A stretch of 64,000 nt of DNA from Escherichia phage vB_Eco_F26. The translations under genes and the position numbers were made by a program. Below are positions 8,277 through 31,415 of the stretch, piece after piece. Position 1 is the stretch's first letter. Each line of letters begins with the position of its first letter. The DNA lies in sequence record OP870145.1; one strand, written 5' to 3'. The notes below the pieces were generated by a model. It did no database searches, was not told the DNA's origin, and saw only the letters and a program-made list of their open reading frames with translations.

Positions 8277-8627
8277 TTAATATTCTTTTAAAGCATCAAT
8301 CTGTTCACGACGTTTACGCCATAAATCAATTGCTTCATACGCAGATTCAGCATTTCGAATTGGACGGCATTTATATAAAGACTTGTGATTTTGATATTGC
8401 GTAGATAACGGAATTTTATCTAAAAGGTCTTTACGTTCAAAGTATTCGTAACCATCTAAGCCAAATGAACGATTTTTGAGAAATTGCCAATGACCGTATT
8501 CGTTTTCGACATAAACATAATCTGCGTGCTGATAAAGCAAATTAATTACACGTTCAGAAATAACAGTGTCATTATGATTAAAATAGAATGTTAAATCATG
8601 AACTACTAAATAAACATTACCTTTCAT
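8277..8627 (-). CDS. hypothetical protein (116 aa)
   Basis: ORF between tRNA-Arg and the putative small RNA region. Confidence 0.55.
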   Translation of the reverse strand: MKGNVYLVVHDLTFYFNHNDTVISERVINLLYQHADYVYVENEYGHWQFLKNRSFGLDGYEYFERKDLLDKIPLSTQYQNHKSLYKCRPIRNAESAYEAIDLWRKRREQIDALKEY

Positions 8628-8643
8628 ATTTTCCTCACTTAAT

Positions 8644-8719
8644 TGGTCGAGACAGTAGGGATCGAACCTACGACCTAGGACTTAGAAGGTCCTTGCTCTT
8701 CCTTCTGAGCTATGCCCCG
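8644..8719 (-). tRNA. tRNA-Arg (anticodon TCT)
   Basis: Manual fold: acceptor CGGGGCA/TGTCTCG (2 G-U), anticodon loop CTTCTAA, T-arm GTAGG-TTCGATC-CCTAC, encoded CCA. Confidence 0.7.
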
Positions 8720-8723
8720 TAAT

Positions 8724-8799
8724 TGGGGTGACCGATGGGAGTCGAACCCATGACTACGAGAATCACAATCTCGAGTTCTACCAACTGAACTACGGCCAC
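8724..8799 (-). tRNA. tRNA-His (anticodon GTG)
   Basis: Manual fold: acceptor GTGGCCG/CGGTCAC, D-arm TAGTTCAGTTGGTAGAAC, anticodon loop TTGTGAT, T-loop TTCGACT, CCA. Confidence 0.7.
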
Positions 8800-8913
8800 A
8801 TTAATACCTACTCCAACAATCAAGATGTCTTCACACGAAATTAAGAGAAGAGTGATCAGTTCAACCCCTATAATCGCGTCAAGTAGATATTAATGTGACA
8901 GTTGTCACAAATT

Positions 8914-8988
8914 TGGCGGACGTGATAGGATTCGAACCTATAACCAATCGCTTAACAGGCGATCGCTCTGCCATTGAGCTACACATCC
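8914..8988 (-). tRNA. tRNA-Asn (anticodon GTT)
   Basis: Manual fold: acceptor GGATGTG/CACGTCC, anticodon stem ATCGC/GCGAT with loop CTGTTAA, T-loop TTCGAAT, CCA. Confidence 0.7.
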
Positions 8989-8992
8989 AAAT

Positions 8993-9079
8993 TGGTGGGG
9001 AGTGGTGGAGTCGAACCACCCGAGTCGCAATGACAATGGATTTACAGTCCACACCGCTACCTCTACGGGATAACTCCCC
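8993..9079 (-). tRNA. tRNA-Tyr (anticodon GTA), long variable arm
   Basis: Acceptor GGGGAGT/ACTCCCC, anticodon loop CTGTAAA, T-arm GGTGG-TTCGACT-CCACC, CCA; D-arm pairing not cleanly resolved by hand. Confidence 0.6.
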
Positions 9080-9088
9080 AAATTAATT

Positions 9089-9163
9089 TGGTGGCCCTGG
9101 GTGGAATTGAACCACCATCTGGCGATTATGAGTCGCTTGCTTGAACCTTCCAGCTACAGGGCC
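9089..9163 (-). tRNA. tRNA with CAT anticodon (Ile-lysidine type as in T4, or Met)
   Basis: Acceptor GGCCCTG/CAGGGCC, anticodon loop CTCATAA, T-arm GGTGG-TTCAATT-CCACC, CCA. Confidence 0.6.
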
Positions 9164-9171
9164 AAATTTTC

Positions 9172-9657
9172 TTATTTTATGTAATATTTATTTAAAAACT
9201 TTCTAGCTTGAGTATGGCTAACATTTATAGCGTTTGCATAATTTTTAATAAAACCTCGTTCATCCATATTAAAATTTTCTAATATTTTTAATCGTCTAGT
9301 TATCTCATCTTGGCTTAAGGTACTTGCATTATTTTTAGAAATTTTTTCTAAGGACTGTGCCGAGTGTTTTCGACCATTAAAATTAAAATTTTTAGATTTT
9401 GGAGGAAATCTATTATTTAGTCTCGCATCTTTTGTATTTTGATTATTAGTTGCGCAATATATGTTATTTAATGAATATGGTCCTTTATCGCCGAAACGGC
9501 ACATGCAGTATTCATGACCCTTTCTTCCACGCTTATCATATTTTCCCGTTGATTTCCACCAATGCAGCCATTCATCAAAAGTTAAATTCCATTCAATGTT
9601 TCTACGTATAGCAGAATTCCGCTGAGAAATATATTTTGCATAATCTTCTTTCATCAC
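9172..9657 (-). CDS. HNH-family homing endonuclease-like protein with NUMOD-type DNA-binding motifs, embedded in the tRNA cluster
   Basis: 161 aa; GHEYCMCRFGDKGPYSLNNIYCATNNQN (HNH_3-like), GRKHSAQSLEKI repeat, C-terminal helix-turn-helix-like segment; T4 has a GIY-YIG seg gene in the analogous region. Confidence 0.6.
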   Translation of the reverse strand: MMKEDYAKYISQRNSAIRRNIEWNLTFDEWLHWWKSTGKYDKRGRKGHEYCMCRFGDKGPYSLNNIYCATNNQNTKDARLNNRFPPKSKNFNFNGRKHSAQSLEKISKNNASTLSQDEITRRLKILENFNMDERGFIKNYANAINVSHTQARKFLNKYYIK

Positions 9658-9701
9658 AAATTTCTCTACTTATTCAATACACCAAGCTAAATCAGCAAAA
9701 C

Positions 9702-9791
9702 TGGCGGAGGCGATAGGATTTGAACCTATGAGTCGCCGGAGCGACTGCCGGTTTTCAAGACCGATGCATTAAACCACTCTGCCACGCCTCC
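9702..9791 (-). tRNA. tRNA-Ser (anticodon TGA), long variable arm
   Basis: Acceptor GGAGGCG/CGCCTCC, anticodon loop CTTGAAA, T-loop TTCAAAT, CCA; sits 2 nt after tRNA-Pro as in the T4 Pro-Ser dimeric precursor. Confidence 0.7.
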
Positions 9792-9793
9792 AG

Positions 9794-9867
9794 TCTCCGT
9801 GGCAGGATTTGAACCTACGACATTCTGCTCCCAAAGCAGACGCTCTACCAAACTGAGCTACACGGAG
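9794..9867 (-). tRNA. tRNA-Pro (anticodon TGG), CCA not encoded
   Basis: Acceptor CTCCGTG/CACGGAG, anticodon stem TCTGC/GCAGA with loop TTTGGGA, T-loop TTCAAAT. Confidence 0.7.
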
Positions 9868-9877
9868 TAAATTAAAT

Positions 9878-9951
<74 letters not shown>

Positions 9952-9956
9952 AAATT

Positions 9957-10043
9957 TGGTGCGAGAAGTGGGACTCGAACCCACAAGGAAATCATTCCGC
10001 AGCATTTTAAGTGCTGTGCCTTTACCAATTTGACCATTCTCGC
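9957..10043 (-). tRNA. tRNA-Leu (anticodon TAA), long variable arm
   Basis: Acceptor GCGAGAA/TTCTCGC, anticodon stem CAGCA/TGCTG with loop CTTAAAA, T-loop TTCGAGT, CCA. Confidence 0.7.
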
Positions 10044-10044
10044 G

Positions 10045-10117
10045 CTGGGAATAAAGGACTCGAACCTTTGCATCTAGCAGTCAAAGTGCTATGCCTTACC
10101 AACTTGGCTAATTCCCA
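10045..10117 (-). tRNA. tRNA-Gln (anticodon TTG), CCA not encoded
   Basis: Acceptor TGGGAAT/ATTCCCA, anticodon stem TAGCA/TGCTA with loop CTTTGAC, T-loop TTCGAGT; abuts tRNA-Leu as in the T4 Gln-Leu dimer. Confidence 0.7.
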
Positions 10118-14021: not shown

Positions 14022-14473
14022 TATGCCCCCTTAAAGCCAAGAGCTCGTAATCCATCTTCTGTTAGAATTCTAAATTTTATTCCACGCTTTTCAGCTAAAG
14101 ATTGTGCTGCTTTCCATTTGTCAGTGTTCACAGACCAGGTATAAATTTCATTCATAAATCTTTTCTTCGCTGCAGTTGTTAGATGTGCTGGTTTAACTGG
14201 TGGTTGTGTTTCTTTTTTAGGTTTTATTTCAATAAAAAATTCTTGCCCAGAAGAATCTTTCATCCAAATATCCATGAAGTATCTACGTTTTTTCCCTTCT
14301 GCATTACAAAAATAAGGAATTACTGCTGTTTCACTACCCCATGCAATAATTTCTGGATTTTTATCTAACCATTCAAAAAAGAATTTTTCCCAATTTGATC
14401 TATACGTAATTTTTTTAGGGTCACCTCTATACTTTGATATATTTTTAGGAACCCATTTTCCAGAATATGCCAT
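14021..14473 (-). CDS. 4: head completion protein gp4
   Basis: 150 aa; synteny. Confidence 0.85.
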
Positions 14474-14484
14474 TGGATTCTCCT

Positions 14485-14507
14485 TATAAATAGATAATAT
14501 ATTTATA
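14485..14507. promoter_or_regulatory. divergent late promoters (TATAAATA on both strands) for gene 53 and gene 4
   Basis: Plus TATAAATA 14485..14492 (29 nt before ATG 14521); minus TATAAATA 14507..14500 (27 nt before ATG 14473). Confidence 0.6.
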
Positions 14508-14520
14508 AACAGGAGGGCCC

Positions 14521-15111
14521 ATGCTCTTTACATTTTTTGATCCGATTGAATATGCGGCCAAAACGGTGAATAAAAACGCGCCGACTATTCCTATGACAGA
14601 TATTTTTAGAAACTATAAAGACTATTTTAAACGTGCTCTTGCGGGATACCGCTTACGTACTTATTATATCAAAGGTTCACCACGCCCGGAAGAATTAGCA
14701 AATGCTATATATGGAAATCCACAGCTGTATTGGGTTTTATTGATGTGTAATGATAATTATGACCCGTATTATGGATGGATTACTTCACAAGAAGCTGCTT
14801 ATCAAGCATCTATACAAAAATACAAAAACGTAGGTGGAGACCAAATAGTATATCATGTGAATGAGAACGGTGAAAAATTTTATAATTTAATATCATACGA
14901 TGATAATCCATATGTTTGGTATGATAAAGGCGATAAAGCTAGAAAATATCCTCAATATGAAGGAGCACTTGCTGCGGTCGATACGTATGAAGCGGCTGTT
15001 CTTGAAAATGAAAAACTTCGTCAAATAAAAATAATAGCAAAATCAGACATCAATTCATTTATGAACGACCTTATACGTATAATGGAGAAATCTTATGGAA
15101 ATGATAAGTAA
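14521..15111 (+). CDS. 53: baseplate wedge protein gp53
   Basis: 196 aa; AGGAGG SD; synteny. Confidence 0.85.
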   Translation: MLFTFFDPIEYAAKTVNKNAPTIPMTDIFRNYKDYFKRALAGYRLRTYYIKGSPRPEELANAIYGNPQLYWVLLMCNDNYDPYYGWITSQEAAYQASIQKYKNVGGDQIVYHVNENGEKFYNLISYDDNPYVWYDKGDKARKYPQYEGALAAVDTYEAAVLENEKLRQIKIIAKSDINSFMNDLIRIMEKSYGNDK

Positions 15112-16867
15112 TAACCTCAACTGGTTTGTTGGTGTTGTTGAAGATAGAATGGACCCATTAAAATTAGGTCGTGTTCGTGTTCGTGTGGTTGGTCTGCATC
15201 CACCTCAAAGAGCGCAAGGCGACGTAATGGGTATTCCAACTGAAAAATTACCATGGATGTCAGTTATTCAACCTATAACTTCTGCAGCAATGTCTGGAAT
15301 TGGAGGTTCTGTTACTGGACCGGTAGAAGGAACTAGAGTTTATGGTCATTTTTTGGACAAATGGAAAACTAACGGAATTGTCCTTGGCACGTATGGCGGA
15401 ATAGTTCGCGAAAAACCGAATAGACTTGAAGGATTTTCTGACCCAACTGGGCAATATCCTAGACGTTTAGGAAATGATACTAACGTACTAAACCAAGGCG
15501 GAGAAGTAGGATATGATTCGTCTTCTAATATTATCCAAGATAGTAACTTAGACACCGCAATAAATCCCGATGATAGACCGTTATCAGAAATTCCAACCGA
15601 TGATAATCCAAATATGTCAATGGCTGAAATGCTTCGCCGTGATGAAGGATTAAGACTAAAAGTTTATTGGGATACCGAAGGATATCCGACAATTGGTATT
15701 GGTCATCTTATCATGAAGCAGCCAGTTCGTGATATGGCTCAAATTAATAAAGTTTTATCGAAACAAGTTGGTCGTGAAATTACAGGAAATCCAGGTTCTA
15801 TTACAATGGAAGAGGCGACGACTTTATTTGAGCGTGATTTGGCTGATATGCAACGTGACATTAAATCACATTCTAAAGTAGGACCAGTCTGGCAAGCTGT
15901 CAACCGTTCTCGCCAAATGGCATTAGAAAATATGGCATTTCAGATGGGTGTTGGCGGTGTAGCTAAATTTAACACAATGTTAACTGCTATGTTAGCAGGA
16001 GATTGGGAAAAAGCATATAAAGCCGGTCGTGATTCATTGTGGTATCAACAGACAAAAGGCCGTGCATCCCGTGTTACTATGATTATTCTTACGGGAAATT
16101 TGGAATCATATGGTGTTGAAGTGAAAACCCCAGCTAGGTCTCTATCAGCAATGGCTGCTACTGTAGCTAAATCTTCTGACCCTGCTGATCCTCCTATTCC
16201 AAATGACTCGAGAATTTTATTCAAAGAACCAGTTTCTTCATATAAAGGCGAATATCCTTATGTGCATACAATGGAAACTGAAAGCGGACATATTCAGGAA
16301 TTTGATGATACCCCTGGGCAAGAACGATACAGATTAGTTCATCCGACTGGAACATATGAGGAAGTATCACCGTCAGGAAGAAGAACAAGAAAAACTGTTG
16401 ATAATTTGTATGATATAACAAATGCTGATGGTAATTTTTTGGTAGCCGGTGATAAAAAGACTAACGTCGGTGGATCAGAAATTTATTACAACATGGACAA
16501 TCGTCTTCACCAAATAGATGGAAGCAATACAATATTTGTGCGCGGCGATGAAACTAAGACGGTTGAAGGTAATGGAACTATCCTAGTTAAAGGTAATGTT
16601 AAAGTAGTTATTCAAGGAACAGCAGATATAACTGTTGAACAGGAAGCATACATAACTGTTGAAAAAGACACGACTGTTAATGTTAACCAAAACGCAGACA
16701 TAAGTGTTAAAAATAAAGCAACTGTTAATGCTGAAAATATGGATGTCAACGTTGAGCAAGATTTAAATTTTTCAGCGACAAATATTAATTTAAGTGCATC
16801 TAATACTGTTCATATGGATGGCGGGGTTCTTTCTAAAGTATCAGGTGGAAACGTACAGGTTGGTTAA
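15095..16867 (+). CDS. 5: baseplate hub and tail lysozyme gp5 (cell-puncturing spike), variant C-terminal beta-helix
   Basis: N-terminus MEMISNNLNWFVGVVEDRMDPLKLGRVRVRVVGLHPPQ and internal lysozyme domain (MAEMLRRDEGLRLKVYWDTEGYPTIGIGH) match T4 gp5 as recalled; 590 aa vs 575; last ~90 aa differ. Confidence 0.92.
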   Translation: MEMISNNLNWFVGVVEDRMDPLKLGRVRVRVVGLHPPQRAQGDVMGIPTEKLPWMSVIQPITSAAMSGIGGSVTGPVEGTRVYGHFLDKWKTNGIVLGTYGGIVREKPNRLEGFSDPTGQYPRRLGNDTNVLNQGGEVGYDSSSNIIQDSNLDTAINPDDRPLSEIPTDDNPNMSMAEMLRRDEGLRLKVYWDTEGYPTIGIGHLIMKQPVRDMAQINKVLSKQVGREITGNPGSITMEEATTLFERDLADMQRDIKSHSKVGPVWQAVNRSRQMALENMAFQMGVGGVAKFNTMLTAMLAGDWEKAYKAGRDSLWYQQTKGRASRVTMIILTGNLESYGVEVKTPARSLSAMAATVAKSSDPADPPIPNDSRILFKEPVSSYKGEYPYVHTMETESGHIQEFDDTPGQERYRLVHPTGTYEEVSPSGRRTRKTVDNLYDITNADGNFLVAGDKKTNVGGSEIYYNMDNRLHQIDGSNTIFVRGDETKTVEGNGTILVKGNVKVVIQGTADITVEQEAYITVEKDTTVNVNQNADISVKNKATVNAENMDVNVEQDLNFSATNINLSASNTVHMDGGVLSKVSGGNVQVG

Positions 16868-16868
16868 T

Positions 16869-18905
16869 ATGAATTATAACGAAATTGTTGATGAATTAGT
16901 TGATACCATACAATCAGCTTGTTCAATTATTCCCGAAGGTTATTATAGACGAGTTAAATGGGAATTATACAATCCCAATAAAGAAATGATTCAACCCGAT
17001 AATGGGGTTGAATGGGACACTGAAATTATTAAATTAGATACCCATCTTTACACTGAAAATCCATTTGGTCATTCTTCTGATACATTTACTGAATCATCTG
17101 ATGGAGAAACCCAAACTGGTGTTTTTTGTCATAAAATCGGCGTGTATTTTCCAACTCAAACTGCGTTAGAAGATTACGTTGAACAAATTGGTGCAACTTT
17201 ACTTCCGGGTAATACTTGGTATGGTGCTGATTTATCGAAACGTGAATTTTTTAAAACTGAAATTGAATATGATATGTATCGCATTGAAAATCGCGGAGGT
17301 ACATGGCATCATACGGGTCCTAGAATAGATGCTAGGACAATGATCGGTGTTAACAATGACTATACAATGTATGTTAACTTTAACGGTTTAGGAGATTATC
17401 GAAGAGCATATTTAAAATATTATGAAGATAAACCATGTACATATGTCGGTTTAACACTAAATTTAAATATAGATACATCAATTCCCGGTATTCCTTATTC
17501 ACCTCCATCAATTATTGGAGAGCTTCCACTTAATGCAATTTCATGCGTTAATTTTACTGCCCAATTTCCATACAATGGCTTAACATCTGCAATTATTGAG
17601 GCTTGGAACACCTCAAGAGATTCATTTAAACTATATTGGGATATGTTGCCTGGTATGCCGGCAATTAGCGGAAGTGATTTCGAAAAATATTTTAATTCGG
17701 CATATACACATTTATCTGTAGCAATGGAAGAGCTTGGAAATTCGGCAATTGCTATGTGTCAATATGTTCAGCAACAAGCCTTTATGGTTTTTAAAAATTC
17801 TGTTTCACAAGTTCTAAATATTGTCGGTGGCGGATGGGATTTATTAAAAAGTTTTTTACCTAAAATAACAATAATGGGCATATCTATTGATATTGAAGAT
17901 TTATGTACATCAACAGATGGTGTTCAAAAATTGAAGGAAACCTTTGAAAATTTTAATCTGGAAGATACTATTAGTTCAATTTATTCTGCAATGGGTTCTG
18001 CATATGACTATTCTATAGAACGCGTTAAAATGTATTCGCGGGATTTAGTTGATGCAATAACAGATTTATATGATTGGGCCTGGTCAAAATTAATGATGGC
18101 TGGTGTCGCTTTATCAAAATTATGTGTTGATTTAGCACAAATCTGGAGCATGCCACCAATTATTCCAAATCCAGTGTGGTCTGTTATCACTTTAGTGAAG
18201 GAAATGATGAAACAAATTCCTCCATTAGATATGATTATGTCAGGTAATTTTCCTGGATTTACTGCTTCTGATGTATATCAGATGGTTATGTCTATTGTAT
18301 CTGAAAAAATTAAACAAGTTTATACTGAAATAGAATCATTAAAAACCCAAGCATTGGATGTATGGAATGAAATTAAACTAAAAACACAGGAATATAAAAA
18401 GCAAACGATTGAATTTAAACAATATTTATCAGGAATGGCTGAAAAGGTTGAAGATGAAATAACTATAGCAAAAGAGAAAGCATTACAAGAAGCTGAATCC
18501 GCTTTAAATGTTTTAAAGGATAAATATAACAGTATTAAAGACTTAATAAAAAATAAGCAGATTTCTGTGTCTGATGTATTAGATTTAGCTTTGACTGAAT
18601 TTCGAAAAATTCCATTAATTTCACAAATGGAATCATTATTATCTTTAGCTGGAGCATCTATCGATGATATAATGAAAGTATATGAAAATAGCGTTACTAA
18701 AGCAAAATCATTATATCACGAATTCACCGATGGCGCTCGGTCAATGAAAGATCTATGCAAATCATTATACAATCAAATTTCGACTTTATGTTTGAGTAAG
18801 GTTGTGCAATGGATTAATAAAATGCTTGGAATATTTGGATTAAGTATTACATTTCCAACAGTATCAATATGCATTCCATGCTTAAAAACTCCTATGAGGA
18901 ATTAA
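16869..18905 (+). CDS. large uncharacterised protein (678 aa) between genes 5 and 6
   Basis: Uninterrupted 2037-nt frame in AT-rich DNA; ATG 1 nt after the gp5 stop; predicted coiled coil plus hydrophobic segments; no counterpart recalled in T4. Confidence 0.7.
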   Translation: MNYNEIVDELVDTIQSACSIIPEGYYRRVKWELYNPNKEMIQPDNGVEWDTEIIKLDTHLYTENPFGHSSDTFTESSDGETQTGVFCHKIGVYFPTQTALEDYVEQIGATLLPGNTWYGADLSKREFFKTEIEYDMYRIENRGGTWHHTGPRIDARTMIGVNNDYTMYVNFNGLGDYRRAYLKYYEDKPCTYVGLTLNLNIDTSIPGIPYSPPSIIGELPLNAISCVNFTAQFPYNGLTSAIIEAWNTSRDSFKLYWDMLPGMPAISGSDFEKYFNSAYTHLSVAMEELGNSAIAMCQYVQQQAFMVFKNSVSQVLNIVGGGWDLLKSFLPKITIMGISIDIEDLCTSTDGVQKLKETFENFNLEDTISSIYSAMGSAYDYSIERVKMYSRDLVDAITDLYDWAWSKLMMAGVALSKLCVDLAQIWSMPPIIPNPVWSVITLVKEMMKQIPPLDMIMSGNFPGFTASDVYQMVMSIVSEKIKQVYTEIESLKTQALDVWNEIKLKTQEYKKQTIEFKQYLSGMAEKVEDEITIAKEKALQEAESALNVLKDKYNSIKDLIKNKQISVSDVLDLALTEFRKIPLISQMESLLSLAGASIDDIMKVYENSVTKAKSLYHEFTDGARSMKDLCKSLYNQISTLCLSKVVQWINKMLGIFGLSITFPTVSICIPCLKTPMRN

Positions 18906-18906
18906 A

Positions 18907-20886
18907 ATGACAACCCCTGTAAATTATCAATTAACAAGAACAGCAAATGCTATTCCCGAGATATTCGTCGGGGGTACGTTTGCTGAAATAAAACAAAACC
19001 TCATTGAATGGCTTAATGGCCAAAATGAATTTTTGGATTATGATTTTGAAGGCTCAAGATTAAACGTTCTGTGTGACCTTTTGGCTTATAATACGCTGTA
19101 CATTCAACAGTTTGGTAATGCTGCTGTGTATGAAAGCTTTATGCGTACTGCTAACTTACGAAGTTCAGTTGTTCAAGCTGCACAAGATAACGGATATTTA
19201 CCTACTTCAAAATCCGCTGCGCAGACCGAAATTATGTTAACATGCACCGACGCATTGAATAGGAATTACATTACTATTCCTCGCGGAACTCGCTTTTTAG
19301 CATATGCAAAAGATACTTCTGTTAATCCATATAACTTCGTTTCTACCGAAGACGTTATTGCCATTCGTGATAAAAATAACCAATATTTTCCACGTTTAAA
19401 ATTGGCCCAGGGACGTATAGTAAGAACTGAAATCATTTATGATAAATTAACACCTATTATCATTTATGATAAAAATATTGATAGAAACCAGGTTAAATTA
19501 TATGTTGATGGAGCGGAATGGATTAACTGGACGAGAAAGTCAATGGTTCATGCTGGTTCAACATCAACGATTTATTATATGCGTGAAACTATTGATGGAA
19601 ACACTGAATTCTATTTTGGTGAAGGTGAAATTTCTGTTAATGCTTCTGAAGGAGCTTTGACCGCTAATTATATCGGAGGTCTTAAACCTACTCAGAACTC
19701 TACGATTGTTATTGAGTACATCAGTACTAATGGTGCTGACGCGAACGGAGCAGTCGGATTTTCATACGCAGATACATTAACAAATATAACTGTCATCAAT
19801 ATTAATGAAAATCCAAACGATGACCCAGATTTTGTTGGTGCAGATGGCGGCGGTGATCCAGAAGATATTGAGCGTATTCGCGAATTGGGTACTATTAAAC
19901 GCGAAACCCAGCAACGCTGCGTAACTGCAACTGACTATGATACATTCGTTTCAGAAAGATTTGGTTCTATTATTCAAGCAGTTCAGACTTTCACTGATTC
20001 TACTAAACCTGGTTATGCATTTATTGCTGCTAAACCTAAATCAGGTCTGTATTTAACTACTGTACAGCGCGAAGATATTAAAAATTATCTCAAAGACTAT
20101 AATTTAGCTCCTATTACGCCATCAATTATTTCTCCTAATTATCTTTTTATTAAGACTAATTTAAAAGTCACATATGCTTTAAATAAACTGCAAGAATCCG
20201 AACAGTGGCTCGAAGGTCAAATAATTGATAAAATTGATCGTTATTATACCGAAGATGTAGAAATTTTTAACTCGTCTTTCGCTAAATCTAAGATGTTAAC
20301 TTATGTAGATGATGCAGATCATTCTATCATTGGTTCATCAGCGACAATTCAAATTGTTCGTGAAGTACAAAACTTCTATAAAACGCCTGAAGCAGGTATT
20401 AAATACAATAATCAAATAAAAGATCGTTCTATGGAATCTAATACGTTTTCATTTAATTCTGGACGAAAGGTTGTAAATCCTGATACTGGTTTAGAAGAAG
20501 ATGTATTATATGACGTTCGCATAGTATCAACAGACCGAGATTCTAAAGGAATTGGTAAAGTTATTATTGGTCCATTTGCTTCTGGCGATGTTACAGAAAA
20601 TGAAAACATTCAGCCGTATACAGGCAATGATTTTAATAAATTAGCAAATTCTGATGGACGTGACAAATATTATATTATCGGTGAAATAAATTATCCAGCT
20701 GACATGATTTATTGGAATATCGCTAAAATTAATTTAACATCTGAAAAATTTGAAGTTCAGACCATTGAATTATATTCTGACCCAACCGATGATGTTATCT
20801 TTACTCGCGATGGTTCACTGATTGTATTTGAAAATGACTTACGTCCACAATACTTAACTATCGATTTGGAGCCTATATCACAATGA
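18907..20886 (+). CDS. 6: baseplate wedge protein gp6
   Basis: 659 aa; synteny and size match T4 gp6. Confidence 0.9.
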   Translation: MTTPVNYQLTRTANAIPEIFVGGTFAEIKQNLIEWLNGQNEFLDYDFEGSRLNVLCDLLAYNTLYIQQFGNAAVYESFMRTANLRSSVVQAAQDNGYLPTSKSAAQTEIMLTCTDALNRNYITIPRGTRFLAYAKDTSVNPYNFVSTEDVIAIRDKNNQYFPRLKLAQGRIVRTEIIYDKLTPIIIYDKNIDRNQVKLYVDGAEWINWTRKSMVHAGSTSTIYYMRETIDGNTEFYFGEGEISVNASEGALTANYIGGLKPTQNSTIVIEYISTNGADANGAVGFSYADTLTNITVININENPNDDPDFVGADGGGDPEDIERIRELGTIKRETQQRCVTATDYDTFVSERFGSIIQAVQTFTDSTKPGYAFIAAKPKSGLYLTTVQREDIKNYLKDYNLAPITPSIISPNYLFIKTNLKVTYALNKLQESEQWLEGQIIDKIDRYYTEDVEIFNSSFAKSKMLTYVDDADHSIIGSSATIQIVREVQNFYKTPEAGIKYNNQIKDRSMESNTFSFNSGRKVVNPDTGLEEDVLYDVRIVSTDRDSKGIGKVIIGPFASGDVTENENIQPYTGNDFNKLANSDGRDKYYIIGEINYPADMIYWNIAKINLTSEKFEVQTIELYSDPTDDVIFTRDGSLIVFENDLRPQYLTIDLEPISQ

Positions 20887-23800
20887 CAGTAAAAGCACCT
20901 TCAGTCACTAGTCTCAGAATTTCCAAGTTATCCGCAAATCAGGTGCAAGTACGCTGGGATGACGTTGGTGCTAATTTCTACTATTTTGTAGAAATCGCTG
21001 AGACAAAAACAAACTCGGGGGAAAAACTCCCGAGTGATCAATATCGTTGGATTAATTTAGGATATACAGCAAATAATAGTTTCTTTTTTGATGATGCTGA
21101 TCCATTAACAACATACATTATTAGAGTAGCTACGGCGGCGCAAGATTTTGAGCAGTCTGATTGGATTTATACCGAAGAGTTTGAAACTTTTGCTACAAAT
21201 GCTTATACATTTCAAAACATGATTGAAATGCAATTAGCTAATAAATTCATTCAGGAAAAATTTACTCTTAATAATTCTGATTATGTTAATTTTAATAATG
21301 ACACTATAATGGCTGCATTGATGAATGAATCATTTCAATTCAGCCCATCATATGTTGATGTTTCATCAATCAGTAATTTTATTATTGGTGAAAATGAGTA
21401 TCATGAAATACAAGGTTCTATTCAGCAAGTATGTAAGGATATTAACCGAGTTTATTTGATGGAATCAGAAGGGATTCTATATCTTTTTGAGCGTTATCAA
21501 CCTGTAGTTAAAGTATCTAATGATAAAGGACAAACCTGGAAAGCTGTAAAGCTCTTCAATGACCGCGTAGGATATCCTTTATCTAAGACTGTATATTACC
21601 AATCTGCAAACACAACATACGTTCTAGGATACGACAAGGTCTTCTATGGCCGTAAATCGACTGACGTTAGATGGTCAGCCGATGATGTCAGATTTAGTTC
21701 TCAGGATATAACATTTGCTAAATTAGGAGACCAACTTCATTTAGGATTCGATGTTGAAATCTTCGCTACTTATGCTACTTTACCAGCGAATGTATACCGT
21801 ATAGCTGAGGCTATTACTTGCACGGATGATTATATCTATGTTGTTGCCAGAGATAAAGTTAGATACATAAAAACGAGTAATGCACCTATAGATTCTGACC
21901 CATTATCTCCAACATATTCGGAAAGACTTTTTGAACCTGACACAATGACTATAACCGGAAATCCTAAAGCAGTATGCTATAAAATGGATTCTGTTGGTGA
22001 TAAAGTTTTTGCTCTTATTATTGGTGAAGTTGAAACATTAAATGCCAATCCGAGAACTTCAAAAATAATTGATTCCTCTGATAAAGGAATATATGTTTTA
22101 AATCATGACACAAAAACGTGGAAAAGAGTTTTTGGTAATACCGAAGAAGAAAGAAGACGTATTCAACCCGGATATGCGAATATGTCAACTGATGGTAAAT
22201 TAGTTTCTCTGTCTTCGAGTAATTTTAAATTTTTAAGCGATAATGTTGTTAATGACCCTGAAACTGTGGTGAAATATCAGTTAATCGGTGCTGTTAAATA
22301 TGAATTTCCTCGTGAATGGTTAGCTGATAAGCATTATCATATGATGGCATTTATAGCGGATGAAAAATCTGATTGGGAGACTTTTACTCCTCAACCAATG
22401 AAATACTACGCAGAACCATTCTTTAACTGGTCTAAAAAATCTAACACACGTTGTTGGATAAACAACTCCGATAGGGTTGTAGTAGTTTATGCTGATTTAA
22501 AATACACCAAAGTTATAGAAAATATTCCGGAAACATCACCAGATAGATTAGTTCATGAATACTGGGATGATGGTGATTGCACTATAGTAATGCCAAATGT
22601 TAAATTCACTGGATTTAAAAAATACGCATCAGGAATGCTTTTCTACAAAGCCTCCGGTGAAATAATTTCTTACTATGATTTTAACTATCGTGTGAGAGAT
22701 ACAGTAGAAATTATTTGGAAACCTACTGAAGTATTTTTGAAAGCATTTTTACAAAACCAAGAGCATGAGACTCCTTGGTCACCAGAAGAAGAGCGTGGAC
22801 TAGCTGACCCCGATTTAAGACCATTAATTGGCACAATGATGCCTGATTCTTATTTGCTACAGGATTCGAATTTTGAAGCATTTTGCGAAGCATATATTCA
22901 GTATCTTTCTGATGGATATGGAACTCAATACAATAATTTACGAAATTTAATTCGTAACAAATATCCACGAGAAGAGCATGCATGGGAATATTTGTGGTCA
23001 GAGATATATAAAAGAAACATTTATTTAAATGCTGATAAACGCGATGCTGTTGCGAGATTCTTTGAATCACGTAGCTACGATTTTTATTCTACTAAAGGAA
23101 TTGAAGCATCATACAAGTTTCTTTTTAAAGTTCTTTATAATGAAGAAGTTGAAATTGAAATTGAATCTGGGGCTGGTACTGAATATGATATAATCGTTCA
23201 ATCTGATTCTTTGACTGAAGATTTAGTAGGACAAACGATTTATACAGCTACAGGAAGATGTAATGTTACTTATATAGAAAGAAGCTATTCTAATGGTAAA
23301 TTGCAATGGACCGTAACTATTCATAATCTTTTGGGACGATTAATTGCTGGTCAAGAAGTTAAAGCAGAAAGACTCCCTAGTTTTGAAGGCGAAATTATTC
23401 GTGGCGTTAAAGGAAAGGATTTGCTTCAAAACAATATAGACTATATTAATAGAAGTAGATCATACTATGTAATGAAAATTAAATCCAATTTACCTTCTTC
23501 CCGCTGGAAATCTGACGTTATTCGTTTTGTTCATCCAGTAGGATTTGGATTTATAGCAATTACCCTTTTAACAATGTTTATTAATGTTGGTTTAACTCTT
23601 AAACATACAGAGACTATAATTAATAAATACAAAAACTATAAATGGGATTCTGGATTGCCTACTGAATACGCTGGTAGAGTAGCTAAATTAACTCCAGCTG
23701 GTGAAATTGAACATGATCCAGTAACAGGCGAAGCAATTTATGAACCTGGTCCAAAGGCTGGTGTAAAATATCCTCTTCCTGATGACTATAATGCTGAAAA

Positions 23801-23981
23801 TAATAATTCAATATTTCAAGGTCAATTGCCGTCTGAACGACGTAAATTAATGAGTCCTTTATTTGATGCATCTGGAACAACATTTGCGCAATTTAGGGAT
23901 TTAGTTAATAAACGTCTAAAAGATAATATAGGAAATCCAAGAGACCCTGAAAATCCAACACAGGTTAAAATAGATGAATGA
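20883..23981 (+). CDS. 7: baseplate wedge protein gp7
   Basis: 1032 aa, same length as T4 gp7; synteny. Confidence 0.9.
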   Translation: MTVKAPSVTSLRISKLSANQVQVRWDDVGANFYYFVEIAETKTNSGEKLPSDQYRWINLGYTANNSFFFDDADPLTTYIIRVATAAQDFEQSDWIYTEEFETFATNAYTFQNMIEMQLANKFIQEKFTLNNSDYVNFNNDTIMAALMNESFQFSPSYVDVSSISNFIIGENEYHEIQGSIQQVCKDINRVYLMESEGILYLFERYQPVVKVSNDKGQTWKAVKLFNDRVGYPLSKTVYYQSANTTYVLGYDKVFYGRKSTDVRWSADDVRFSSQDITFAKLGDQLHLGFDVEIFATYATLPANVYRIAEAITCTDDYIYVVARDKVRYIKTSNAPIDSDPLSPTYSERLFEPDTMTITGNPKAVCYKMDSVGDKVFALIIGEVETLNANPRTSKIIDSSDKGIYVLNHDTKTWKRVFGNTEEERRRIQPGYANMSTDGKLVSLSSSNFKFLSDNVVNDPETVVKYQLIGAVKYEFPREWLADKHYHMMAFIADEKSDWETFTPQPMKYYAEPFFNWSKKSNTRCWINNSDRVVVVYADLKYTKVIENIPETSPDRLVHEYWDDGDCTIVMPNVKFTGFKKYASGMLFYKASGEIISYYDFNYRVRDTVEIIWKPTEVFLKAFLQNQEHETPWSPEEERGLADPDLRPLIGTMMPDSYLLQDSNFEAFCEAYIQYLSDGYGTQYNNLRNLIRNKYPREEHAWEYLWSEIYKRNIYLNADKRDAVARFFESRSYDFYSTKGIEASYKFLFKVLYNEEVEIEIESGAGTEYDIIVQSDSLTEDLVGQTIYTATGRCNVTYIERSYSNGKLQWTVTIHNLLGRLIAGQEVKAERLPSFEGEIIRGVKGKDLLQNNIDYINRSRSYYVMKIKSNLPSSRWKSDVIRFVHPVGFGFIAITLLTMFINVGLTLKHTETIINKYKNYKWDSGLPTEYAGRVAKLTPAGEIEHDPVTGEAIYEPGPKAGVKYPLPDDYNAENNNSIFQGQLPSERRKLMSPLFDASGTTFAQFRDLVNKRLKDNIGNPRDPENPTQVKIDE

Positions 23982-24978
23982 TTCAAGTGTTATCTATCGT
24001 GCGATAGTTACTTCAAAATTTAGAACAGAAAAAATGTTGAATTTTTATAATTCAATTGGAAGTGGTCCGGATAAAAACACTATCTTTATCACATTTGGAA
24101 GATCAGAACCGTGGTCATCAAATGAAAATGAGGTGGGCTTTGCCCCACCTTATCCAACCGATTCTGTATTAGGCGTAACTGACATGTGGACGCATATGAT
24201 GGGAACAGTAAAAGTTCTTCCATCAATGCTTGATGCAGTTATTCCTCGTAGAGATTGGGGAGATACTCGATATCCTGATCCATACACATTTAGAATTAAT
24301 GACATTGTAGTGTGTAACTCAGCTCCTTACAACGCTACTGAATCCGGCGCAGGCTGGTTAGTATATCGTTGTTTAGACGTTCCTGATACTGGAATGTGCT
24401 CAATAGCATCTTTAACTGATAAGGATGAATGCCTTAAATTAGGCGGAAAATGGACACCTTCTGTTAGATCAATGACTCCTCCTGAAGGTCGAGGAGATGC
24501 TGAAGGAACAATTGAACCCGGAGACGGGTATGTGTGGGAATATCTATTTGAGATTCCGCCTGATGTATCTATAAATAGATGCACAAATGAATATATCGTA
24601 GTTCCTTGGCCAGAGGAATTAAAAGAAGACCCGACTAGATGGGGATATGAAGATAATCTCACTTGGCAACAAGATGATTTTGGATTAATTTATCGCGTTA
24701 AGGCAAATACTATCCGGTTTAAAGCATATTTAGATTCAGTTTATTTTCCTGAAGCTGCATTGCCGGGAAATAAAGGATTTAGACAAATATCAATAATCAC
24801 GAATCCTCTTGAAGCTAAAGCTAATCCAAATGACCCAAACGTTAAAGCTGAAAAGGATTATTATGATCCGGAAGATTTAATGAGACATTCGGGCGAAATG
24901 ATTTATATGGAAAATAGGCCACCTATTATCATGGCAATGGATCAAACAGAAGAAATCAATATTCTGTTTACATTTTAA
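23974..24978 (+). CDS. 8: baseplate wedge protein gp8
   Basis: 334 aa; synteny. Confidence 0.9.
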   Translation: MNDSSVIYRAIVTSKFRTEKMLNFYNSIGSGPDKNTIFITFGRSEPWSSNENEVGFAPPYPTDSVLGVTDMWTHMMGTVKVLPSMLDAVIPRRDWGDTRYPDPYTFRINDIVVCNSAPYNATESGAGWLVYRCLDVPDTGMCSIASLTDKDECLKLGGKWTPSVRSMTPPEGRGDAEGTIEPGDGYVWEYLFEIPPDVSINRCTNEYIVVPWPEELKEDPTRWGYEDNLTWQQDDFGLIYRVKANTIRFKAYLDSVYFPEAALPGNKGFRQISIITNPLEAKANPNDPNVKAEKDYYDPEDLMRHSGEMIYMENRPPIIMAMDQTEEINILFTF

Positions 24979-25908: not shown

Positions 25909-27716
25909 TGAAACAAAATATTAATATCGGTAATGTTGTAGATGATGGTACCGGTGACTACCTGCGTAAAGGTGGTATAAAAATAAATGAAAACTTTGAT
26001 GAGCTTTATTATGAACTTGGTGATGGTGATGTTCCATATTCAGCCGGTGCCTGGAAAACTTATAATGCTTCATCAGGACAAACATTAACAGCAGAATGGG
26101 GAAAATCATACGCTATTAATACATCTTCTGGAAGAGTGACTATAAATCTTCCAAAGGGCACAGTTAATGATTACAACAAGGTAATTAGAGCTAGAGACGT
26201 ATTTGCTACATGGAACGTCAACCCAGTTACACTAGTAGCTGCTTCCGGCGATACGATTAAAGGGTCTGCAGTACCAGTTGAAATTAATGTTCAATTCAGC
26301 GATTTAGAACTAGTGTATTGTGCCCCAGGACGTTGGGAATATGTCAAAAATAAACAAATTGACAAAATTACCAGTTCAGACATTAGTAATGTAGCTCGTA
26401 AAGAATTTTTAGTTGAAGTTCAAGGACAAACAGACTTTTTAGATGTTTTCCGTGGAACTAGTTATAATGTAAATAACATCAGAGTAAAACATCGTGGTAA
26501 CGAATTGTATTACGGTGATGTATTTAGCGAAAACAGCGATTTTGGCTCTCCGGGCGAAAATGAAGGAGAACTAGTTCCTCTTGATGGATTTAATATTCGA
26601 TTAAGACAGCCTTGTAATATTGGTGACACTGTTCAAATTGAAACATTTATGGATGGTGTATCGCAGTGGAGAAGTTCATATACAAGACGTCAAATTAGAT
26701 TGTTAGATTCAAAATTAACGTCAAAAACTTCTTTAGAAGGAAGCATTTACGTTACTGATTTATCAACAATGAAATCAATTCCATTTTCTGCTTTTGGATT
26801 AATTCCAGGAGAACCTATTAATCCTAACTCTCTTGAGGTTCGTTTTAACGGGATTTTGCAGGAATTGGCTGGCACAGTTGGAATGCCATTATTTCATTGT
26901 GTTGGTGCCGATTCAGACGATGAAGTAGAATGCTCTGTTTTAGGTGGAACTTGGGAACAATCTCATACCGATTATTCAATTGAAACTGATGAAAACGGCA
27001 TACCGGAAATTTTACATTTCGATAGAGTATTTGAGCATGGTGACATTATCAATATCACCTGGTTTAATAATGATTTGGGTACATTATTAACAAAAGACGA
27101 GATTATTGATGAAACTGATAATCTCTATGTATCGCAAGGGCCGGGAGTAGATATTTCTGGCGATGTAAATTTAACAGACTTCGATAAAATTGGTTGGCCA
27201 AATGTAGAAGCAGTTCAATCTTATCAACGCGAATTTAATGCTGTTTCAAATATCTTTGATACGATTTATCCTATTGGAACTATATATGAAAACGCTGTTA
27301 ATCCAAACAACCCTGTTACATATATGGGATTCGGCTCATGGAAATTATTTGGGCAAGGAAAAGTTTTAGTTGGATGGAATGAAGATATTTCGGATCCGAA
27401 TTTCGCTCTAAATAACAACGATTTAGATTCTGGTGGAAGTCCTTCGCATACTGCAGGTGGAACAGGTGGTTCTACTTCGGTTACATTGGAAAATGCTAAT
27501 CTTCCTGCAACTGAAACAGATGAAGAAGTTCTAATAGTTGATGAAAATGGATCAGTCATTGTTGGTGGGTGTCAATACGATCCAGATGAATCCGGTCCAA
27601 TTTACACTAAATACCGTGAAGCTAAAGCATCTACTAACTCTACTCACACTCCGCCAACATCAATAACTAACATTCAACCATATATTACAGTTTATCGTTG
27701 GATAAGGATTGCATAA
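25908..27716 (+). CDS. 10: baseplate wedge protein gp10
   Basis: 602 aa; synteny. Confidence 0.9.
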
Positions 27717-28375
27717 TGAGTTTACTTAATAATAAAGCGGGAGTTATTTCCCGCTTAGCCGATTTTCTTGGTTTTAGACCTAAAGCTGGTAATATAGATG
27801 TAATGAATCGTCAATCAGTTGGGTCAGTGACAATTTCTCAATTAGCGAAAGGATTTTATGAACCAAACGTAGAATCAGCTATTAATGACGTTCATAATTT
27901 TTCTATAAAAGACGTTGGTACAATTATTACTAATAAAACTGGTGTTTCTCCTGAGGGTGTTTCTCAAACCGATTATTGGGCATTTTCTGGAACTGTAACA
28001 GACGATTCTCTTCCTCCGGGTTCTCCTGTTACGGTATTAGTATTTGGTCTTCCAGTTTCAGCAACAACCGGAATGACGGCAATTGAGTTTGTTGCAAAAG
28101 TTCGTGTTGCCCTTCAAGAAGCTATTGCGTCATTTACTGCTATCAACTCATATAAAGACCATCCAACAGATGGTAGTAAATTAGAAGTTACTTATTTAGA
28201 TAATCAAAAACATGTATTAAGCACATATTCTACATATGGAATAACTATTTCGCAGGAAATTATTTCTGAGTCTAAACCTGGCTACGGTACATGGAATTTA
28301 TTAGGCGCACAAACGGTAACTTTAGATAATCAGCAGACTCCTACAGTATTTTATCATTTTGAGAGAACAGCATGA
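27716..28375 (+). CDS. 11: baseplate wedge protein gp11 (short tail fiber attachment)
   Basis: 219 aa from ATG 27716 (TAATG overlap with gene 10); [19 protein letters not shown]... Confidence 0.9.
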
Positions 28376-29955
28376 GTAATAATACATATCAACACGTTTC
28401 TAATGAATCTCGTTATGTAAAATTTGATCCTACCGATACGAATTTTCCACCAGAGATTACTGATGTTCAGGCTGCTATAGCAGCCATTTCTCCTGCTGGC
28501 GTAAATGGAGTTCCTGATGCATCGTCAACAACAAAGGGAATTTTATTTCTTGCCACTGAACAGGAAGTTATAGATGGAACTAATAATACCAAAGCAGTTA
28601 CACCAGCAACGTTGGCAACAAGATTATCTTATCCAAATGCGACTGAAACTGTTTACGGATTAACAAGATATTCAACCAATGATGAAGCCATTGCCGGAGT
28701 TAATAACGAATCTTCTATAACTCCAGCTAAATTTACTGTTGCTCTTAATAATGCGTTTGAAACTCGTGTTTCAACTGAATCCTCGAATGGTGTTATTAAA
28801 ATTTCATCTCTACCGCAAGCATTAGCTGGTGCAGATGATACTACTGCAATGACTCCGTTAAAAACTCAACAGTTAGCTATTAAACTAATTGCGCAAATTG
28901 CTCCTTCTGAAACTGCAGCTACCGAATCGGCCCAAGGCGTTGTTCAATTAGCAACAGTAGCACAGGTTCGTCAAGGAACTTTAAGAGAAGGTTATGCAAT
29001 TTCTCCTTATACGTTTATGAATTCTACTGCTACTGAAGAGTATAAAGGTGTAATTAAATTAGGAACACAGTCAGAAGTTAACTCAAATAATGCTTCTGTT
29101 GCTGTTACTGGTGCAACTCTTAATGGTCGTGGTTCTACAACGTCAATGAGAGGCGTAGTTAAATTAACTACAACCGCCGGCTCACAGAGTGGAGGTGATG
29201 CTTCATCAGCATTAGCTTGGAATGCTGATGTTATCCACCAAAGAGGTGGTCAAACTATTAATGGAACACTCCGCATTAATAACACGCTTACAATAGCTTC
29301 AGGTGGAGCAAATATTACCGGAACAGTTAACATGACCGGTGGTTATATTCAAGGTAAGCGTGTCGTAACACAAAATGAAATTGATAGAACTATTCCTGTC
29401 GGAGCTATTATGATGTGGGCCGCTGATAGTCTTCCTAGTGATGCTTGGCGTTTTTGTCACGGTGGAACTGTTTCAGCGTCAGATTGTCCATTATATGCTT
29501 CTAGAATTGGAACAAGATACGGCGGAAGCTCATCAAATCCTGGATTGCCTGACATGCGTGGTCTTTTTGTTCGTGGCTCTGGTCGTGGCTCTCACTTAAC
29601 AAATCCAAATGTTAATGGTAATGACCAATTCGGCAAGCCTAGATTAGGCGTAGGTTGTACTGGTGGGTATGTTGGCGAAGTACAAAAACAGCAGATGTCT
29701 TATCATAAACACGCTGGCGGATTTGGTGAGCATGATGATTCTGGAGCATTCGGTAATACCCGTAGATCAAATTTTGTTGGTACACGTAAAGGACTTGACT
29801 GGGATAACCGTTCATACTTCACCAATGATGGATATGAAATTGACCCAGCATCACAGCGAAATTCCAAATATACATTAAATCGTCCCGAATTAATTGGAAA
29901 TGAAACACGTCCATGGAACATTTCTTTAAACTACATAATTAAGGTAAAAGAATGA
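28372..29955 (+). CDS. 12: short tail fiber protein gp12
   Basis: 527 aa; synteny; repetitive fibre-like sequence. Confidence 0.9.
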
Positions 29956-31415
29956 CAGATATTGTACTGAATGACTTACCATTCGTTGACGGCCCTCCTG
30001 CAAAGGGCCAGAGCCGCATTTCCTGGATTAAAAACGGCGAAGAAATATTAGGAGCTGACACACAGTATGGAAGTGAAGGCTCAATGAATAGACCTACGGT
30101 TTCTGTACTAAGAAATGTTGAAGTTCTTGATAAAAACATTGGAATACTTAAAACATCTTTAGAAACCGCAAATAGTGATATTAAAACCATCCAGGGCATC
30201 TTAGATGTATCTGGTGATATAGAAGCTTTAGCACAAATAAGTATCAATAAAAAGGATATTTCTGATCTCAAAACGCTAACCAGTGAACATACAGAAATAT
30301 TAAATGGAACTAATAGTACTGTTGACAGCATTCTTGCTGATATTGGTCCATTTAACTCCGAGGCCAACTCTGTATACAGAACGATCAGAAATGATTTACT
30401 GTGGATAAAGCGTGAACTTGGACAATACACTGGTCAAGATATTAATGGTCTTCCTGTTGTAGGAAATCCTAGTAGTGGAATGAAGCATCGCATTATTAAT
30501 AATACTGATGTCATTACTTCACAGGGAATACGTTTAAGTGAATTAGAAACAAAATTTATTGAATCTGATGTAGGTTCTTTGACCATTGAAGTTGGTAATC
30601 TTCGCGAAGAGCTTGGACCGAAACCACCGTCTTTTTCACAAAACATTTACAGCCGCTTAAATGAAATTGACACTAAACAGACAACAGTTGAGTCTGACAT
30701 TAGTGCTATTAAGACCTCAATAGGATATCCAGGAAATAATTCGATTATTACGAGTGTTAATACAAACACTGATAATATTGCATCTATTAATTTAGAGCTA
30801 AATCAAAGTGGAGGTATTAAACAGCGTTTAACAGTTATTGAAACTTCCATTGGTTCAGATGATATTCCTTCGAGTATTAAAGGTCAAATCAAAGATAATA
30901 CAACTTCAATCGAATCTCTAAATGGAATCGTCGGTGAAAACACTTCATCTGGTTTAAGAGCGAATGTTTCATGGTTAAACCAAATTGTTGGAACTGATTC
31001 TAGCGGTGGACAACCTTCTCCTCCTGGGTCTCTTTTAAACCGAGTTTCTACAATTGAAACTTCTGTTTCAGGCTTGAATAATGATGTTCAAAACCTACAA
31101 GTAGAGATTGGTAATAACAGCACAGGAATTAAAGGGCAAGTTGTAGCGTTAAATACTTTAGTAAATGGAACTAATCCAAACGGTTCAACTGTCGAAGAGC
31201 GCGGATTAACCAATTCAATAAAAGCTAACGAAACCAACATTGCATCAGTTACACAAGAAGTGAATACAGCTAAAGGCAATATATCTTCTTTACAAGGCGA
31301 TGTTCAAGCTCTCCAAGAAGCTGGTTATATTCCTGAAGCGCCAAGAGATGGGCAAGCTTACGTTCGTAAAGACGGCGAATGGGTATTGCTTTCTACCTTT
31401 TTATCACCAGCATAA
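29952..31415 (+). CDS. wac: fibritin (whisker antigen control), wac
   Basis: 487 aa; heptad-rich coiled coil; C-terminal foldon [27 protein letters not shown]. Confidence 0.95.

Follow-up and report, generated by a model that had tools for sequence, protein, structure and literature searches.

In a contractile-tailed phage, the host membrane is first met by the spike tip, whose role is only starting to be tested. Work of 2025 on T4 showed that its tip protein gp5.4 matters both to fitness and to the infection of deep-rough lipopolysaccharide (LPS) mutants (PMC12407873). A fragment from the tip of the central spike complex of T4 was described as contacting the periplasmic protein PpiD (PMC7600766). 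The present text concerns a 64,000-nucleotide (nt) stretch of Escherichia phage vB_Eco_F26 (sequence record OP870145.1), hereafter called the window, in which the interval between gene 5 (spike protein gp5) and gene 6 was found to contain a single open reading frame (ORF) of 678 codons.

Gene 5.4 was reported to be lacking in phages RB43, RB16 and Lw1, and the 5.1-5.4 locus was found to contain orf205w, which encodes about 690 amino acids (aa), with mixed helices and strands in residues 1-220 followed by a helical remainder (Mattenberger et al., bioRxiv 2025, PMC12407873). The cryo-electron microscopy map of the RB43 baseplate at 17.7 Å was found to contain an enlarged tip into which the AlphaFold model of orf205w fits (PMC12407873). 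In a comparative paper of 2006, orf205w had been listed merely as an ORF without a meaningful domain. A paper published in Viruses in 2026 (PMC13611949) presented an AlphaFold3 model of gp203 of Klebsiella phage Helios on the gp202 trimer, in which a hydrophobic base touches the last gp5 strand (Gly583-Gly589), the core is an intramolecular triple coiled coil (Phe287-Ile327, Glu398-Trp440 and Lys631-Ile670) and a loop is present at the distal tip; gp203 as an analogue of gp5.1 and gp5.4 together was the speculation of its authors. The tip family has already been proposed in this literature of 2025-2026, and what is new here is the chimera on a T4 backbone, the terminal-strand rule of gp5 and the conservation map of the family.

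The gp5 end and the 678-codon frame

Positions 16602-18906 of the window were interpreted, with a probability of roughly 0.75, as a needle-end and tip cassette, in which the 678-codon ORF encodes a tip of the orf205w family that replaces the PAAR-type gp5.4. The gene for gp5 (15095-16867, + strand, 590 aa in the ORF listing) was found to contain a T4-type backbone in residues 1-502 (15095..16601, + strand; OB fold, lysozyme domain and start of the beta-helix, matched by Pfam Gp5_OB, Phage_lysozyme and Gp5_C), followed by a swapped distal end of the beta-helix in residues 503-590 (16602..16867, + strand), which closes with ...KVSGGNVQVG and forms the left part of the cassette. When compared with the gp5 of the T4-type phage AR1, residues 1-502 were found to contain one substitution (99.8% aa identity), and from residue 503 onwards the match was reduced to scattered positions, with about 31% identity across the last 88 residues. 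The gp5 of the window was also 15 aa longer than that of AR1. Because the junction falls inside gene 5, the gp5 of the window is a chimera of 502 T4-identical residues and a foreign end. An earlier note made from the letters of the window had described a T4-like gp5 with divergence in about its last 90 residues, and this description was borne out.

The ORF (16869..18905, + strand), a homologue of RB43 orf205w (PHROG 5296) and a putative non-PAAR spike-tip gene, was found to begin with an ATG one base past the gp5 TAA, and gene 6 (18907..20886, + strand; baseplate wedge, T4-type right flank, 98.1% identity to AR1 from 18897 onwards) begins 1 nt past its stop codon; the earlier description of one frame filling the whole gap holds. 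An alternative GTG start at 16794, within gp5, was present in the ORF listing, and the ATG at 16869 was favoured because homologues begin with MNY... or MIMDY.... The same note had stated that the interval holds no other ORF of at least 60 aa; this was a small slip, since an antisense GTG frame of 60 aa (18008-18190), a mechanical ORF, is embedded in the 678-codon gene.

A match to the T4 late-promoter consensus, TATAAATA, was found by pattern search 5′ of gene 53 (14485..14492, + strand), where it may act as a promoter, and no second + strand copy was found by the same search before 24570. With this one + strand copy before 24570, genes 53-5-ORF-6-7 probably form a single late transcription unit. 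The scan of 14300-24200 for sigma-70 promoters and terminators was found to contain nothing beyond chance. From this gene layout, the ORF is probably co-transcribed late with the baseplate genes and translationally coupled to gp5.

T4-type relatives were found to contain gene 5.1 (184 aa) and gene 5.4 (97 aa, PAAR) in the interval between genes 5 and 6, in agreement with the small genes that the earlier note names for T4. With AR1 proteins as tblastn queries (E<10), gp5.4 was not found in the 64-kb window or in the complete 168-kb genome of the near-identical phage PD112, which was used for the genome-wide search, and gp5.1 gave only chance-level fragments (E 2.6-3.9) in both; by contrast, gp5.4 was present in 1422 phage records. 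Pfam searches of the ORF product gave no PAAR, toxin or enzyme domain and only sub-threshold coiled-coil noise. Both searches agree with the earlier remark that nothing PAAR-like is visible in the interval, and no PAAR gp5.4 was found elsewhere in the window or in PD112. Alignment of the ORF profile with the gp5.4 profile (hhalign) gave a probability of 0.05% and an E-value of 0.84, and the predicted ORF product was found to be helical instead of having the small beta-pyramid fold of PAAR tips. The ORF as a diverged fusion of gp5.1 and gp5.4 was considered and rejected because the hhalign probabilities were about 0.

Homologues, coupling and borders of the cassette

The ORF was found to match phrog_5296 (PHROGs, 'unknown function') over residues 1-673 with E=0 and 1123 bits, and full-length homologues were found by tblastn in 215 phage records. 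The RB43 match lies inside RB43ORF205w (residues 1-673, 41.9% identity, E 1e-157 by tblastn; 43.9% identity in the MAFFT alignment). The identity of the ORF was about 72-73% to WG01 (Dhakavirus) and about 72% to SP18 and LHE83, followed by 60% to KM16 (Moonvirus), 56% to Pm5461 (Bragavirus), 46% to S13 (Cronobacter; genus unassigned) and about 41% to RB43 (Pseudotevenvirus), KP15 (Slopekvirus), Lw1, Miller, Miro and Matisse. The tip gene was found directly 3′ of gene 5 in every locus inspected, and the order of gene 5 and ORF seen in the window was present in PD112, WG01, RB43, KM16, Pm5461 and KP15. Among the homologues, none with a tested unrelated function was found.

A profile search of 1.84 billion representative proteins gave 20 matches at E<=1e-3, about 8 of which were full-length clusters (at 50% identity), and the weak remainder matched the coiled-coil region in residues 476-640. 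No bacterial relatives and no relatives linked to a type VI secretion system (T6SS) were seen in this search, and all members for which the source or the neighbouring genes were inspected belong to T4-like phages. Judged by these sequence searches, the orf205w family is narrow. The earlier note had offered effector cargo, anti-defence and receptor functions as options for the ORF; these found no backing in a toxin or enzyme domain, in an informative fold match or in bacterial or T6SS relatives.

Several members were found to differ in length, neighbourhood or name. In the Slopekvirus phT4A (locus L013, 3346-4973), the homologue is annotated with about 485 aa and begins 170 nt past gp5; its tblastn coverage is limited to residues 190-673, and the record is labelled 'partial genome'. 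Truncation, a frameshift or faulty assembly could explain the short phT4A homologue. In Cronobacter phage S13, a series of small ORFs encoded on the opposite strand comes after the tip gene in place of gene 6. A metagenome contig of the European Nucleotide Archive (L020) was found to contain a gp25-like gene between the tip gene and gene 6. In a metagenome contig of the Joint Genome Institute (L021, 219-1391), gp5 is just 389 aa long, with an OB fold and a beta-helix and without the lysozyme domain, and ends in ...FTGGTVVVG, followed 4 nt later by the start of a 743-aa tip homologue. The homologues of Roth88, Roth90, phi1_146007 and vB_KpnM_KP1 carry the names 'tail length tape measure' or 'baseplate hub structural protein', and such record names probably spread from weak coiled-coil profile matches.

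The end of gp5 and the type of tip were found to go together. The 88-aa gp5 end matches 214 phage records, among which no T4/PAAR-type phage is listed, and the ORF matches 215. The breakdown by organism name was identical for both sets, with Klebsiella (113), Escherichia (26), Enterobacter (20), Cronobacter (18), Citrobacter (13), Proteus (7), Salmonella (4) and Shigella (3). The near-perfect co-occurrence across phage records agrees with the earlier claim that a large gene and the needle tip vary together.

Fifteen gp5 proteins were aligned, of which 8 belong to large-ORF phages and 7 to phages that carry gp5.4, and the region corresponding to residues 1-502 was not sorted by tip type. In this N-terminal part, the gp5 of the window was 99.8-100% identical to that of AR1 and 80% to that of a Mosigvirus, both of PAAR type; that of KM16 was 76% identical to AR1, and that of RB43 was 61% identical to that of a PAAR-type Krischvirus. 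The C-terminal part was sorted perfectly by tip type, with identities of 18-33% between types and 31-98% within them. All eight aligned gp5 proteins from large-ORF phages were found to end in (S/T)G(G/A)(N/T)VQVG, and all ten gp5 ends that precede a member of the ORF family fit the wider pattern (S/T)G(G/A)(N/T)V(Q/S/V)VG. The ten include two distant metagenomic members, P0065 (29% identity), with an upstream gp5 ending in GGTVSVG, and P0066, with a lysozyme-less upstream gp5 ending in GGTVVVG. The gp5 of PAAR-type phages was found to end in GSRI(D/N)(I/L/V)G, with the exception of an Acinetobacter phage (...PRYNMV).

The left border of the cassette was found to be sharp at 16601/16602, with a DNA identity to AR1 of about 97% up to 16601 followed by collapse. 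At the right junction (18897..18915, + strand; gene 6 ribosome-binding site and first codons), AR1 identity resumes, and the N-terminus of gp6 reads MTTPVNY in the window and MANTPVNY in AR1. This 3-nt indel places the right recombination border inside the first codons of gene 6. The cassette of about 2.3 kb stands in for about 1.07 kb of T4-type phages (73 gp5 codons, 5.1 and 5.4). The best explanation of 16602-18906 is a single exchangeable cassette that comprises the needle end of gp5 and the tip ORF.

The whole segment was shared by 9 of 503 matching phage records at 99.0-99.2% identity, and these nine represent six phages (BYEP01, PD112, sutha, G8, SG1 and JEP6); the other 490 or so match the flanks only, and those inspected annotate 5.1 and 5.4 in the gap. 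Diversity was compared in six cassette-bearing Tequatroviruses with flanking sequence (the window, PD112, G8, SG1, JEP6 and sutha). The left flank with gp53 and the N-terminal part of gp5 (14521-16601) was found to contain 69.7 segregating sites per kb (mean pairwise identity 96.79%), followed by 9.5 in the cassette (16602-18906; 99.59%) and 78.8 in gene 6 (18907-20886; 96.23%), so that the diversity of the cassette is lower than that of its flanks by a factor of about 8. In PD112, the identity to the window rises from about 95% to 99.4% and falls back, with the steps exactly at the cassette borders. The best explanation is that the cassette of Tequatrovirus stems from one recent acquisition and now stands in diverse backbones. 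After its acquisition it may have spread by homologous recombination in the flanks; alternatively, the flanks may have exchanged sequence with the numerous PAAR-type phages, and the cassette only with its own kind. The donor, as far as the available sequences indicate, would be an unsampled T4-like phage, the next closest ORF being 72-73% identical.

Predicted structure and place of the product

The AlphaFold2 model of the ORF product, built from a 35-sequence alignment, had a mean predicted local distance difference test (pLDDT) score of 86.6 and a predicted template modelling (pTM) score of 0.77. It was found to contain strands and short helices up to about residue 280, followed by helices at residues 285-319, 389-426, 466-520, 529-566 and 622-655. 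The N-terminal alpha/beta domain (residues 1-200, 16869..17468) folds confidently alone and matched no known fold. Core helix 1 (residues 285-319, 17721..17825) is 80% identical to WG01; in the Helios model, Phe287-Ile327 of gp203 belongs to the triple coiled coil that faces the last gp5 strand. Just past the end of core helix 2 (residues 389-426, 18033..18146; 90-92% to WG01) lie two nearly invariant motifs, PPxxPNP and GNFPGFT (residues 429-465, 18153-18263). The long helical hairpin of about 8 nm (residues 466-566, 18264..18566; helices 466-520 and 529-566) and the segment with core helix 3 (residues 622-655) and a hydrophobic C-terminal strand (residues 664-673) at 18732..18902 complete the protein; all of these elements lie on the + strand. 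The globular N-terminal part, long helices and hydrophobic stretches that had been read from the letters are in line with this model and with a hydropathy scan. The Kyte-Doolittle maximum was 1.76, at residues 653-671, and no clear transmembrane segment was found in the product at this maximum.

The most conserved parts of the product were core helices 2 and 3 together with residues 427-465 (90-92% identity to WG01, with 91% in core helix 3), next to 90% in the gp5 end. The N-terminal domain (68% to WG01) evolves faster than the core, as does the hairpin, which was the least conserved part, with 27-65% identity (65% to WG01). The core is conserved like the gp5 end and the outer parts are variable, which fits a conserved core touching gp5 with exposed variable parts outside. 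The hairpin probably forms the distal, exposed needle and ends in a loop, in line with the 'loop at the tip' of the Helios model. A Foldseek search of the model against the PDB gave nothing at E<=1e-3, and no solved homologue was found by a PDB sequence-profile search. Since the ORF product has no homology to gp5.1 or gp5.4, no solved relative and no fold match, it would be a protein of no known fold that stands in for the PAAR tip without being homologous to it.

Within the virion, the putative location of the ORF product is the gp5 spike tip, with support for the family from the 17.7 Å RB43 map and the fitted AlphaFold model. In the proposed mechanism, the protein would be made late from the gene 53-5-6 transcript, and one copy would bind the blunt C-terminal platform of a gp5 trimer of the class that always ends in ...GGxVxVG. 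Binding would take place through the conserved intramolecular three-helix coiled coil, which, from its conservation and the published AlphaFold models, would continue the threefold axis. The protein has the genomic position of gp5.4 and gp5.1 and would replace both as the spike tip, with its faster-diverging N-terminal domain and hairpin presumably facing outward. By analogy with T4 and P2, the tip would be the first part of the virion to pass the outer membrane upon sheath contraction and would end in the periplasm with gp5C. The tip-associated protein proposed in the earlier note thus gains support from the homology to RB43 orf205w, from the extra tip density of RB43 (PMC12407873) and from the co-occurrence with the gp5 end, and is still putative. 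It also stands up to the refuting conditions named in that note, since neither a PAAR gene elsewhere in the window or PD112 nor a homologue with a tested unrelated function was found.

Several points weigh against a spike-tip protein. The RB43 map is at only 17.7 Å, the orf205w model is of low confidence according to its authors, co-expression of orf205w with a gp5 beta-helix fragment failed, and the assignment was worded 'possibly' and 'putative' (PMC12407873). The copy number, orientation and interface rest on published AlphaFold models and conservation. The co-occurrence compares totals and taxon breakdowns, not individual records, with 10 lineages checked directly, and the linkage between gp5 end and ORF could partly reflect chromosomal adjacency. 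In the literature, no mass-spectrometry report was found that lists a protein of the ORF family in virions. The KP15/KP27 paper is without mass spectrometry, that on vB_EcRAM-01 used sodium dodecyl sulfate polyacrylamide gel electrophoresis only, and the mass spectrometry of the ValerieMcCarty phages covers PAAR-type Jiaodavirus members. The inspected part of the Morganella MP1 table has nothing between gp141 and gp147, apparently not even gp5. In GenBank, the note 'structural virion protein' stands on the neighbours of KP15_158 and not on KP15_158 itself, and these notes are uninformative because they are apparently homology-based.

T4 baseplate and fibre chaperones can be encoded beside their clients, and the ORF product might by this precedent be a late protein that stays out of the virion, for instance a chaperone in the assembly of the altered gp5 end, the tip density of RB43 then coming from elsewhere. 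The lack of a proteomic detection in the literature and the failed in vitro reconstitution of the complex (PMC12407873) would suit such a protein. However, RB43 lacks 5.4 and any other candidate for the extra tip density (PMC12407873), the ORF product is large, well folded in its model and conserved over its full length across about 30-100% identity, and the invariant terminal strand of gp5 points to a stable, not a transient, interface, which together make a chaperone very improbable. Next to no credence was given to a protein resembling the tail tape measure. Weak PHROG matches (E 3e-5 to 9e-5) and the 'tail length tape measure' annotation of the Roth88, Roth90 and phi1_146007 records speak for it, but these matches reach about 22 bits against 1123 bits for PHROG 5296, and the remote relatives among the 1.84 billion proteins match only the coiled coil in residues 476-640. 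Moreover, gp29 (hub, tail length) is annotated in PD112, collinear with about 57.3-59.0 kb of the window, and the ORF stands between gp5 and gp6 and not among the tube genes. The tape-measure identity was rejected on these grounds, namely 22-bit matches confined to the coiled coil, a gp29 already present and the wrong gene neighbourhood.

The ORF product could also ride on the spike mainly as a delivered membrane-active or host-specific factor, a determinant of host range after adsorption beyond a mechanical cap, for example by insertion into or opening of the inner membrane for DNA passage or by recognition of an envelope component. Its size of about 7 times that of gp5.4, the much faster divergence of the N-terminal domain and hairpin than of the core, and its hydrophobic C-terminus favour such a factor, as do the importance of T4 gp5.4 on deep-rough LPS hosts (PMC12407873) and the contact of the T4 tip fragment with PpiD (PMC7600766). 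It was nevertheless judged unlikely, given the empty Foldseek search at E<=1e-3 and the lack of a clear transmembrane segment or of an enzymatic or toxin domain in the product; such a role would extend the tip model and is compatible with it.

A somewhat less doubtful, though still tentative, extension of the spike-tip reading is that the large tip is a host-specific penetration module of a new fold, in which the N-terminal domain and hairpin engage an envelope component, such as the LPS core, a periplasmic chaperone or the inner membrane, and in which exchange of the cassette would give T4-like phages a second means, after adsorption, of altering their host range. If this is true, the natural chimeras on a T4 backbone (the window, PD112, G8, SG1, JEP6 and sutha) would show directly that phages with such a swap are viable and that the swap is selected. 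The near-T4 backbone, with gp5 residues 1-502 and genes 53 and 6 of T4 type, gives natural near-isogenic pairs in the best-developed phage genetic system. The terminal-strand rule (GGxVxVG versus GSRIDIG) and the conservation of the core helices point to the contact site and suggest which chimeras would be expected to fail.

Other divergent stretches and comparison with known systems

Outside the cassette, the window was found to contain 10 tRNA genes on the - strand at 8644-10117 (Arg, His, Asn, Tyr, Met, Ser, Pro, Gly, Leu and Gln), with a 160-aa ORF (9172-9654, - strand) without a Pfam match inserted between tRNA Met and tRNA Ser. Most of 8278-9685, which holds the first five tRNA genes and the 160-aa ORF, gave no megablast match in PD112. 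An ORF with an HNH_4 domain (32371-33183, + strand, E 5.5e-5) and one with a NUMOD3 domain (51881-52474, + strand, E 1.9e-12) were found between structural genes, in stretches without a PD112 megablast match, and look like mobile homing-endonuclease insertions. The identity to PD112 was 65-79% at 26900-29170 and 84% at 29889-32361, against about 95-97% elsewhere in the window. By collinearity with PD112, the former contains the C-terminal end of gp10 together with gp11 and gp12, followed by the fibritin region in the latter, and the exchange of these baseplate parts of host recognition seems to have occurred separately from that of the tip cassette.

Among known systems, the VgrG-PAAR-effector modules of the T6SS resemble the cassette in being a swappable tip module beside a spike gene, whereas the ORF was found to contain no toxin, enzyme or adaptor domain and gave no bacterial homologues in the searches described above. 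The UpfB tripod of phage P1, which stands on the PAAR protein UpfC, likewise extends the spike tip of a contractile tail with alpha-helices and a distal loop (PMC13611949). However, P1 keeps the PAAR protein and carries three copies of a separate helical protein, whereas the ORF product is proposed to have a single-chain, three-helix core of pseudo-threefold symmetry without PAAR.

T4 gp5.4 (PDB 4KU0) and gp5.1 share with the ORF the genomic slot in the late baseplate gene run, and gp5.4 resembles the proposed ORF product in being a single protein that caps the blunt end of the gp5 beta-helix trimer. The two differ in size and fold (97 aa and a beta-pyramid in gp5.4, 678 aa and a predicted helical protein in the window) and in the terminal strand of gp5, and the role of gp5.4 is backed by a crystal structure and genetics, whereas that of the ORF is putative. 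The orf205w-type tip would be a second, unrelated solution beside PAAR, with a putative function and a predicted structure.

RB43 orf205w and Helios gp203, putative large spike-tip proteins found in Pseudotevenvirus, Slopekvirus and their relatives, resemble the ORF of the window in their full-length homology, in their place directly 3′ of gene 5 and in an alpha/beta N-terminal part followed by an all-helical remainder. RB43 and the window are also alike in the gp5 end ...VQVG and in the absence of both 5.1 and 5.4. Unlike that of RB43, the ORF of the window stands in Tequatrovirus, where the other members inspected carry 5.1 and 5.4, and the closest relatives of its cassette belong to Dhakavirus (72-73% identity in the ORF and 90% in the gp5 end).

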